Sequence record: MT682710.1
Source: Escherichia phage vB_EcoM_FT
Strand: one strand, 5' to 3'
Length of the DNA: 64,000 nt
Positions within the stretch are counted from its first letter, which is position 1. Each line of letters begins with the position of its first letter. Below are positions 17,031-18,482 of this stretch, piece by piece. Under the pieces are notes generated by a model, which worked only from the letters and a program-made list of their open reading frames with translations, was not told the origin of the DNA and ran no database searches. A program made the position numbers and the translations under genes.

Positions 17031-17057
17031 CAAAATGAAGAAAGGGGCCGAAGCCCC
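17031..17057 (-). terminator. terminator after hoc
   Basis: Minus strand GGGGC-UUCG-GCCCC followed by UUUCUUCAUUUU. Confidence 0.65.
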
Positions 17058-17063
17058 TTATGA

Positions 17064-18482
17064 TTATGGATAGGTATAGATGATACCAGTTTCTAAAGCA
17101 GTTTTATGAATGATGTATCCATTACGCGATTCTTGAACATCAACTTCTGGATAGTCTTTCATCATCTTCTGAAGAGTGTAACGATGTAGGTAATATTTAC
17201 TATCTGGGTCGTCAGTTTTCCAATCTTTACCTTCTTCGGTCATTTTTTGGATTTCATCCATAACCCACCAACCGCACCAGATATAAGCTGAAGTACGATG
17301 TGGAAGAGGATGAACATAAGGTAATTCACCTTCTGGTTCTGGAGCAACTTTATCAGTTACCTGAACTTGACCTTCTGCTGTAATAGTTTTGCTATCATAG
17401 TCAGTAGCAGTAACAGTTGCAGTAACTTCAATAGTTTGACTTCCAATAGATGAGGTATCAACTGTATACACATTAGTCGATCCTTCTACAGGAGAAGAGT
17501 CTTTCTTCCATGAATAAGTAATTTGCGCTTCTTCTGGAGCATCAGTGACATTAGCAGTAAATGTAGCCGAAGCATCTTGTTGAACGTTAATAGAAGGAGG
17601 AGTCAATGTAACCTGTGGATTCATTGTCTTCTTATTAACTGTTAATGATACTTCATTCGAAGTAACTTCCTTTTCATTGTAATTTTCAGCAGTTACTTGG
17701 GCTACGCATTTAATTCTTTTTACTCCACTTGTAGTTGGAGTATAGCTAAATGTAGAGTTAGTTTCTCCACCAACTTGTGAATCATCTACATACCACTGAT
17801 ACGTAGCAGATGCTCCATCAGGTTGAGAAGCTAAGGCAGCAGTAAATTGAACTGGTGTTCCAATTACTCCAGCTGAAGGACTATCGGGAGTTACTGCCAA
17901 AGTAGTTGTCTGTGTCTTTTTATTAACAGTCAATGACACTTCATTAGAAGTAACTTCTTTTGCATCATAATCTGTCGCGGTTACTTGAGCCACACACTTA
18001 ATTCTTTTTACCCCGCTTTCGGCAGGAGTGTAATTGAACGTAGCGTTAGTTGCTTCGCCCACAGGAGAATCATCTACATACCATTGATAAGTAGCGTTTG
18101 CGCCCGATGGCTGCGAAGCTAAAGCGGCAGTAAATTCAATAGCTGTTCCGATTACTCCAGCGTCAGGGCTATTAGGAGTTACAGCTAAGGTAGTCGTTTG
18201 TGTCTTATTTTGAACTGTGATAGTTGTTGTCGCTTCAGCCGTTTCCGGGCCTCCTTCAGAAAGTGTATTTGTTGCAACTACTTTAATAGTCTTTTGACCG
18301 GCAGGTCCTTTTAGTACATAACTAAAAGTTGCTTCAGCTCCATCTTGTGGAGCATCATCTACAGTCCAAGCATAGGTAATAGTTCCGCCTCCAGTTTCAC
18401 CACTGGGTGTAGCAGTAAACTGCTGAGTCTGATCTATAACTCCAGTAGGTGTTTTAGGAGTTATATCAACTGTAAAAGCCAT
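17064..18482 (-). CDS. hoc: Hoc, highly immunogenic outer capsid protein, with four Ig-like domains (one duplicated)
   Basis: 472 aa; Ig-like repeats; C-terminal capsid-binding region ...YIWCGWWVMDEIQKMTEEGKDW...; 96-aa internal tandem duplication. Confidence 0.9.
   Translation of the reverse strand: MAFTVDITPKTPTGVIDQTQQFTATPSGETGGGTITYAWTVDDAPQDGAEATFSYVLKGPAGQKTIKVVATNTLSEGGPETAEATTTITVQNKTQTTTLAVTPNSPDAGVIGTAIEFTAALASQPSGANATYQWYVDDSPVGEATNATFNYTPAESGVKRIKCVAQVTATDYDAKEVTSNEVSLTVNKKTQTTTLAVTPDSPSAGVIGTPVQFTAALASQPDGASATYQWYVDDSQVGGETNSTFSYTPTTSGVKRIKCVAQVTAENYNEKEVTSNEVSLTVNKKTMNPQVTLTPPSINVQQDASATFTANVTDAPEEAQITYSWKKDSSPVEGSTNVYTVDTSSIGSQTIEVTATVTATDYDSKTITAEGQVQVTDKVAPEPEGELPYVHPLPHRTSAYIWCGWWVMDEIQKMTEEGKDWKTDDPDSKYYLHRYTLQKMMKDYPEVDVQESRNGYIIHKTALETGIIYTYP
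17637..18212 (-). repeat. diverged tandem duplication (2 x 288 bp) inside hoc, encoding two adjacent Ig-like domains
   Basis: Hoc residues ~91-186 and ~187-282 are about 80% identical; DNA at 17635-17670 and 17923-17958 aligns with a 288-bp offset. Confidence 0.85.

Follow-up and report, generated by a model that had tools for sequence, protein, structure and literature searches.

The window analyzed here, a stretch of 64,000 nucleotides from Escherichia phage vB_EcoM_FT (hereafter FT; MT682710.1), carries on its minus strand an open reading frame at positions 17064..18482 that encodes 472 amino acids plus a stop codon, with its frame intact. Its product matches the PHROG profile phrog_1149, 'Hoc-like head decoration' (E 5e-138), and the T4 Hoc chain 5vf3_Z (376 aa; E 5e-226), with a further match of residues 408-472 to phrog_21694 (E 8.7e-42). 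Pfam detected a PKD domain at 44.6 bits (cut-off 23.5), together with weaker matches to Ig_2, Ig_3, and I-set. The gene lies between inh and 24.3, near rnlB and uvsW, so that RNA ligase 2 and the UvsW helicase are encoded among its neighbors, and these neighbors match those annotated in RB27, RB18, and RB69. Directly past the hoc stop codon, a G+C-rich terminator-like hairpin followed by a T run was found (17042..17059, minus strand), and terminators are annotated at the equivalent position in KAW1E185, ATK48, G53, G4498, and G4507. Scans of the 64-kb window for tRNA genes and for Rfam families at the gathering threshold were both negative. The gene is hoc, and its product is built of four units of Ig type with an intact anchor at the C-terminus. 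In T4-type phages, one copy of Hoc sits in the middle of every gp23 hexamer of the mature capsid.

All five segments of the protein are encoded on the minus strand. The first Ig-like domain (D1, aa 1-90; 18213..18482) aligns with residues 1-90 of T4 Hoc and forms an all-beta block in the structure model (residues 1-91). It is followed by two consecutive units of 288 bp each, named unit 1 (aa 91-186; 17925..18212), with Pfam matches to PKD, Ig_2, and BiPBP_C, and unit 2 (aa 187-282; 17637..17924), which harbors the best PKD stretch at residues 195-267. The next Ig-like domain (D3, aa 283-377; 17352..17636) corresponds to domain 3 of T4, aligning with T4 residues 187-281 and matching Ig_3 and I-set at residues 289-373. 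The protein ends in a non-Ig capsid-binding domain (aa 378-472; 17067..17351) homologous to T4 Hoc 281-376, its last 95 residues being near-identical to T4 residues 282-376. The motif ESRNG, found within this domain at residue 451 (T4 residue 355), belongs to a loop near the Hoc C-terminus to which Sathaliyawala et al. reportedly assigned, in 2010, a role in capsid binding.

An AlphaFold model of FT Hoc, built from the single sequence with no alignment (mean pLDDT 71; C-terminal domain unreliable), contained four all-beta blocks at residues 1-91, 99-187, 195-283, and 290-376, of which D3 was the one modeled with the highest confidence. Confidence was low in the linkers, residues 93-97 and 189-193, and these coincide exactly with the unit boundaries. 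The best Foldseek matches in the PDB were proteins with four Ig domains (Dscam1 Ig1-4 and ICAM-5 D1-D4), and RB49 Hoc (3shs) was also matched. Pfam, the model, and Foldseek therefore each report the N-terminal string of Ig-like domains.

Tandem Repeats Finder identified a repeat with a period of 288 and 2.0 copies at 17625..18206 (77% matches, 0% indels, score 693), and an independent repeat search paired 17625-17912 with 17913-18200 at 76% identity. When set in codon register, units 1 and 2, which are adjacent and in frame, were 75.7% identical in DNA and shared 76 of 96 residues (79.2%), with differences at 70 of the 288 positions and a longest common exact word of 17 nt. Comparison of the window with itself gave an identity of 0.757 between the adjacent 288-nt blocks at hoc versus a mean of 0.285 (sd 0.029, max 0.396) elsewhere. 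Moreover, a 41-nt motif recurs within hoc at spacings of 285, 288, and 285 nt, which places all four Ig-type domains in phase. In local BLASTP alignments, units 1 and 2 were 81% identical to each other, whereas each showed only 36-44% identity to D1 or D3; judged by its sequence, the extra Ig-like unit copies domain 2. These results bear out the initial annotation, which had described from the letters alone a 472-aa hoc frame with two consecutive units of about 96 residues, about 80% identical and with the same 288-bp periodicity in the DNA.

Alignment with T4 Hoc pairs FT residues 1-110 with T4 1-110 and FT residues 189-472 with T4 93-376; exactly 96 residues, that is one unit, are therefore extra in FT. 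This agrees with the statement, in the same annotation, that T4 Hoc has 376 residues and one Ig-like unit fewer: T4 Hoc (PDB 5vf3, 8t1x, and others) contains one domain-2 cassette versus two in FT. The cassette lacking a counterpart in T4 is unit 1, whose DNA is matched at 95% identity by the lone domain 2 of RB18, a phage with three Ig-like domains. On the other hand, unit 2 resembles the single domain 2 of T4 (90%), KAW1E185 (95%), and RB51 (94%). Outside the repeat, the most divergent orthologous segment between FT and T4 is D3 (17352-17636), with 84.9% DNA identity, a dS of 0.47, and a dN of 0.091. As the FT D3 is 98% identical to those of RB30 and RB27, the D3 of T4 belongs to a different allele class.

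To place these sequences among their relatives, the FT hoc gene was compared by megablast with 50,697 phage records, 678 of which were matched. The best matches, at 99.4% over the full 1419 bp, were vB_EcoM-CHD94UKE2, G3F7, G3F10, and WilhelmHis; the Hoc protein of CHD94UKE2 (MZ234031.1, QZI81137.1) is 100% identical to that of FT, as the differences between the two genes (99.4% identity) are all synonymous and confined to the C-terminal domain. In an even sample of the whole megablast ranking, 50 rows had full query coverage, and of these 17 spanned about 1419 bp and 33 about 1131 bp, the T4 form. The Hoc proteins of RB30 (AY101183.1) and RB27 (KM607000.1) likewise have 472 residues, with the domain boundaries and the order of the two cassettes found in FT, and differ from it by point substitutions only, located mostly in D1 and unit 1 (93-94% DNA identity, 26-28 amino-acid differences). 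FT thus carries the RB30/RB27 type of allele, a 1419-bp gene with two in-frame 288-bp copies of domain 2 in the same order, although its unit 1 shares 84% DNA identity with unit 1 of RB30 compared to 95% with the single domain 2 of RB18. In GenBank, the RB30 hoc entry is annotated with five domain regions and with a repeat_region at 367-944, in the same position as the tandem repeat of FT, and credits an intragenic repeat for the additional immunoglobulin-like domain; among the papers searched none describes this repeat, the GenBank annotation being its only source there. The four-Ig hoc of FT is therefore already known and ordinary, with about one third of the related phages carrying the 472-aa version. 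Because RB30, RB27, and many other reference phages share the exact four-domain structure, the distinctiveness implied for FT by the initial annotation does not stand.

Arrays of other lengths were found as well. Hoc of RB69 (471 aa, AY303349.1), a phage of another genus, also consists of four Ig-like units and a C-terminal domain; the latter shares 99% protein identity with FT, but the Ig units only 42-68%. A five-Ig Hoc of 568-570 aa is encoded by Shigella phage ESh26, by Escherichia phage KMB26 (1707 bp, 568 aa in both; two further rows of the even sample), and by the metagenome contig OARM01000641 (570 aa), where the two cassettes, ordered as in FT, are followed by a third unit before D3; within the extracted loci these alleles lie at 209-1915, 240-1946, and, for locus L041, 401-2113. 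Scans of IMG/VR and of metagenomes returned a handful of close relatives each, and three-, four-, and five-unit forms occur outside isolate genomes. It has been described that the number of Hoc domains varies among T4-like phages (PMC10385173, PMC11150434, PMC13435897), and when 650 Hoc homologues were surveyed, their Ig-like domains were found to be arranged in strings, the longest, with 10, in phage Muldoon (PMC10385173). Such Hoc-like proteins share with FT the N-terminal Ig-like string and the C-terminal capsid anchor, but their sequences are distant and their domains have independent histories.

For a finer analysis, 35 intact hoc alleles from isolates, IMG/VR, and metagenomes were cut into units, which fell into three types named alpha (that of FT unit 1), beta (that of FT unit 2), and gamma (the third unit of the five-Ig alleles). 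These types are sharply distinct, with core identities of 88-100% for units of one type and 72-85% for units of different types; against the best alpha, beta, and gamma references, the cores scored 85, 75, and 72% for FT unit 1 and 75, 96, and 82% for FT unit 2, and a tree of the units supports the order alpha first and beta second in FT. Among the 22 multi-unit alleles, 17 were alpha-beta, three alpha-beta-gamma, one beta-gamma, and one beta-beta, the gamma cassette also filling the second position in UoN_LDJ77_1, whose allele is of the four-Ig form. The reversed order was found in none of the 22, these alleles being related and recombining, so that the counts do not represent independent events. 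The remaining 13 alleles carried a single unit (three-Ig form), of alpha type in seven (e.g. RB18) and of beta type in six (including T4, RB51, and KAW1E185). For all 13 single units the nearest sequence was a unit of some array and not another single unit, as exemplified by allele L045, whose unit is 99.0% identical to unit 1 of teqskov, although the sample contains more array units than single ones and this makes an array unit the likelier nearest neighbor. At the 70 sites that distinguish the units, domain 2 of T4 showed 14 positions like RB30 unit 1, followed by 43 consecutive beta positions and then by 10 alpha-like ones, while that of KAW1E185 had a head of unit-1 type on a body of pure beta. 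Domain 2 of T4 is, by the pattern of these sites, a mosaic of two cassette types, in which the head is of unit-1 type, the core beta, and the tail alpha-like.

The three junctions of the FT array are similar in sequence, reading ACAGTT then CAAAATAAGACACA between D1 and unit 1, ACTGTT then AATAAAAAGACACA between units 1 and 2, and ACAGTT then AATAAGAAGACAAT between unit 2 and D3, with a common linker that can be written TV-NK-KT in protein and ACAGTT.A.AA.AAGACA in DNA. This similarity provides a substrate for the exact gain or loss of one domain. The number of domain-2 cassettes per Tequatrovirus hoc varies from one to three (376, 472, or 568 aa). Unequal homologous recombination, either between linkers or inside the units, is the likely source of this variation: as similar linkers flank every Ig domain, each event would add or remove one exact 288-bp domain in frame. 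The product in FT reads D1, alpha, beta, and D3, all Ig-like, and then the conserved C-terminal domain, which would anchor it at the center of the capsid hexamer.

The age of the two cassettes was estimated from their substitutions. Between the FT units, dS was 1.29 and dN 0.135 (dN/dS 0.10), and other four- and five-unit alleles showed dS values of 0.5-1.3 between their own units. By comparison, the orthologous D1, D3, and C-terminal domains differed by dS values of 0.06-0.60 between FT and 13 other alleles, which places the alpha/beta split before the sampled Tequatrovirus diversity and upholds the earlier suggestion that the duplication is not recent. These rates indicate that alpha and beta are old paralogues of domain 2, both under purifying selection. 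A single RB69 unit (aa 91-186, 52%) is the nearest to both FT units, and the split between the latter is accordingly later than, and separate from, that of the second and third units of RB69; the use of RB69 as an outgroup for polarity was dropped for the same reason.

We conclude that FT has very probably inherited a widespread four-Ig hoc allele, at a locus where an array of Ig cassettes varies in copy number, probably through unequal recombination. A repeat falsely expanded during assembly deserves mention since tandem repeats are prone to this error and the FT sequence comes without read data. However, the 70 differences between the units and their short shared words allow reads to be placed unambiguously, the reading frame is intact, and dozens of phages sequenced independently, as well as metagenome contigs, contain an identical 1419-bp gene structure; with no exact word beyond 17 nt and so many independent assemblies of the four-Ig structure, an artefact is implausible to the point of being ruled out. 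Neither could the duplication be recent and private to the FT lineage, as the comparison with T4 alone, the one observation in its favor, might suggest. Not only is the dS between the units 1.29, but the alpha-beta arrangement is common to RB30, RB27, phiD1, ECO4, teqskov, and others, with flanks up to dS 0.4 from FT, and we rejected this origin as having hardly any chance of being correct.

Two histories can be considered for the inherited array itself. When two three-Ig phages infected the same cell, one unequal crossover at their linkers could have joined alpha and beta versions of domain 2 that had long diverged, in which case the 24% divergence between the units would predate their junction and would tell nothing about the age of the four-Ig form. 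The required parents exist, as three-Ig phages carry either pure alpha (RB18, ATK48, L045) or beta (T4, RB51, KAW1E185) cassettes, the similar linkers would permit the exchange, and Tequatrovirus genomes are mosaic in this region, where hoc and the surrounding 24 kb are nearest to different phage sets (99.4% and 97%, respectively). Nevertheless, random events of this kind predict beta-alpha arrays as often as alpha-beta ones, whereas a reversed array is absent from the set of 22; alpha, beta, and gamma would have to be ancient allele classes maintained at one site whose flanks differ by a dS of only 0.06-0.6; and recurrent deletion from arrays is a simpler explanation for 13 of 13 single units being nearest to array units. 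With samples that are not independent, no one of these points is decisive. On balance, such a crossover appears rather unlikely. An old array with recurrent deletions is favored instead by the alpha, beta, gamma order, which is constant, and by single units lying scattered among those of arrays. If so, the three-Ig Hoc of T4 is secondary, and we tentatively propose, as a possibility still short of being probable, that a multi-cassette array (alpha-beta or alpha-beta-gamma) was ancestral in Tequatrovirus hoc and that the T4 form is one of many independent 288-bp deletions. The depositors of RB30 read the change in the opposite sense, with the four-Ig form as derived. Chimeric single-unit alleles were dropped as indicators of polarity, because the same chimeras would arise whenever alpha and beta alleles recombined in the ordinary homologous way.

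Other observations were made on the region around hoc and on hoc in related phages. The 24 kb at window positions 8000-32000 have a best identity of 97% to known phages (vB_Eco_BCPEco_001 and SHFML-11), and since hoc is nearest to another set (CHD94UKE2, G3F7, G3F10, and WilhelmHis), the genome is mosaic in this part. Among the genomes matched at 97%, BCPShso_001, PhiZZ6, and TadeuszReichstein align in two pieces and about 280-290 bp short, a shortfall that may correspond to the hoc cassette indel. With RB69, a DNA match to hoc was detected only over the last 273 nt (1501-1773 of the extracted locus versus FT 17064-17336; 96%), and T4-type hoc genes are present in records classed as Mosigvirus (ATK48, mobillu, and G53). 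This distribution suggests that the Ig string may move between phages as one module, bounded at the point where the Ig domains meet the C-terminal domain. The gene is disrupted in T2 (MH751506), where it spans 1117 bp with multiple in-frame stops (151-1267 of the extracted locus); it is annotated in three pieces in PM105, split into two CDS in SfPhi01 (1420 bp), and labeled 'Hoc part 1 / part 2' in FriedrichMiescher. Although sequencing errors are possible in these four records, such disruptions fit a dispensable gene, hoc being a non-essential gene for capsid decoration.

In the model known as BAM, mucin glycans are bound by the Ig-like domains of Hoc. The T4 Hoc fiber measures 180 Å (PMC10385173), and that of FT is predicted to be longer by approximately one Ig domain, on a very rough estimate 45 Å. 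The domain-2 surface would also be displayed twice, including the motif NEVSLTV, which occurs in FT Hoc at residues 180 and 276 and whose S-L-T is the reported MUC2-binding site of PhiPNJ-9 Hoc (PMC11853027). Furthermore, D1 of FT Hoc carries E29 and G33 (18384-18398), the pair of residues that PhiPNJ-6 Hoc reportedly requires to bind MUC2 fucose (PMC11150434), with Q29 present in T4. NEVSLTV, E29, and G33 are taken here as sequence correlates of adherence only.

As a discovery the four-Ig Hoc of FT has little value, given that the exact protein is already in GenBank, that the extra domain is annotated for RB30, and that variation in domain number has been published, and its practical relevance is modest, deriving from the use of Hoc for antigen display and from its implication in mucus adherence. 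For phage comparisons, it is relevant that Hoc has 472 residues in about one third of Tequatrovirus isolates, and not the 376 of T4, and that domain 2 of T4 combines two cassette types. The cassette array offers a natural system for testing the effects of fiber length and of domain-2 dosage on adherence. If the array is indeed ancestral, the number of Ig cassettes would be a recurrently switching trait that tunes fiber length and adherence, and the T4 form that underlies all structural and display work would be a derived one.
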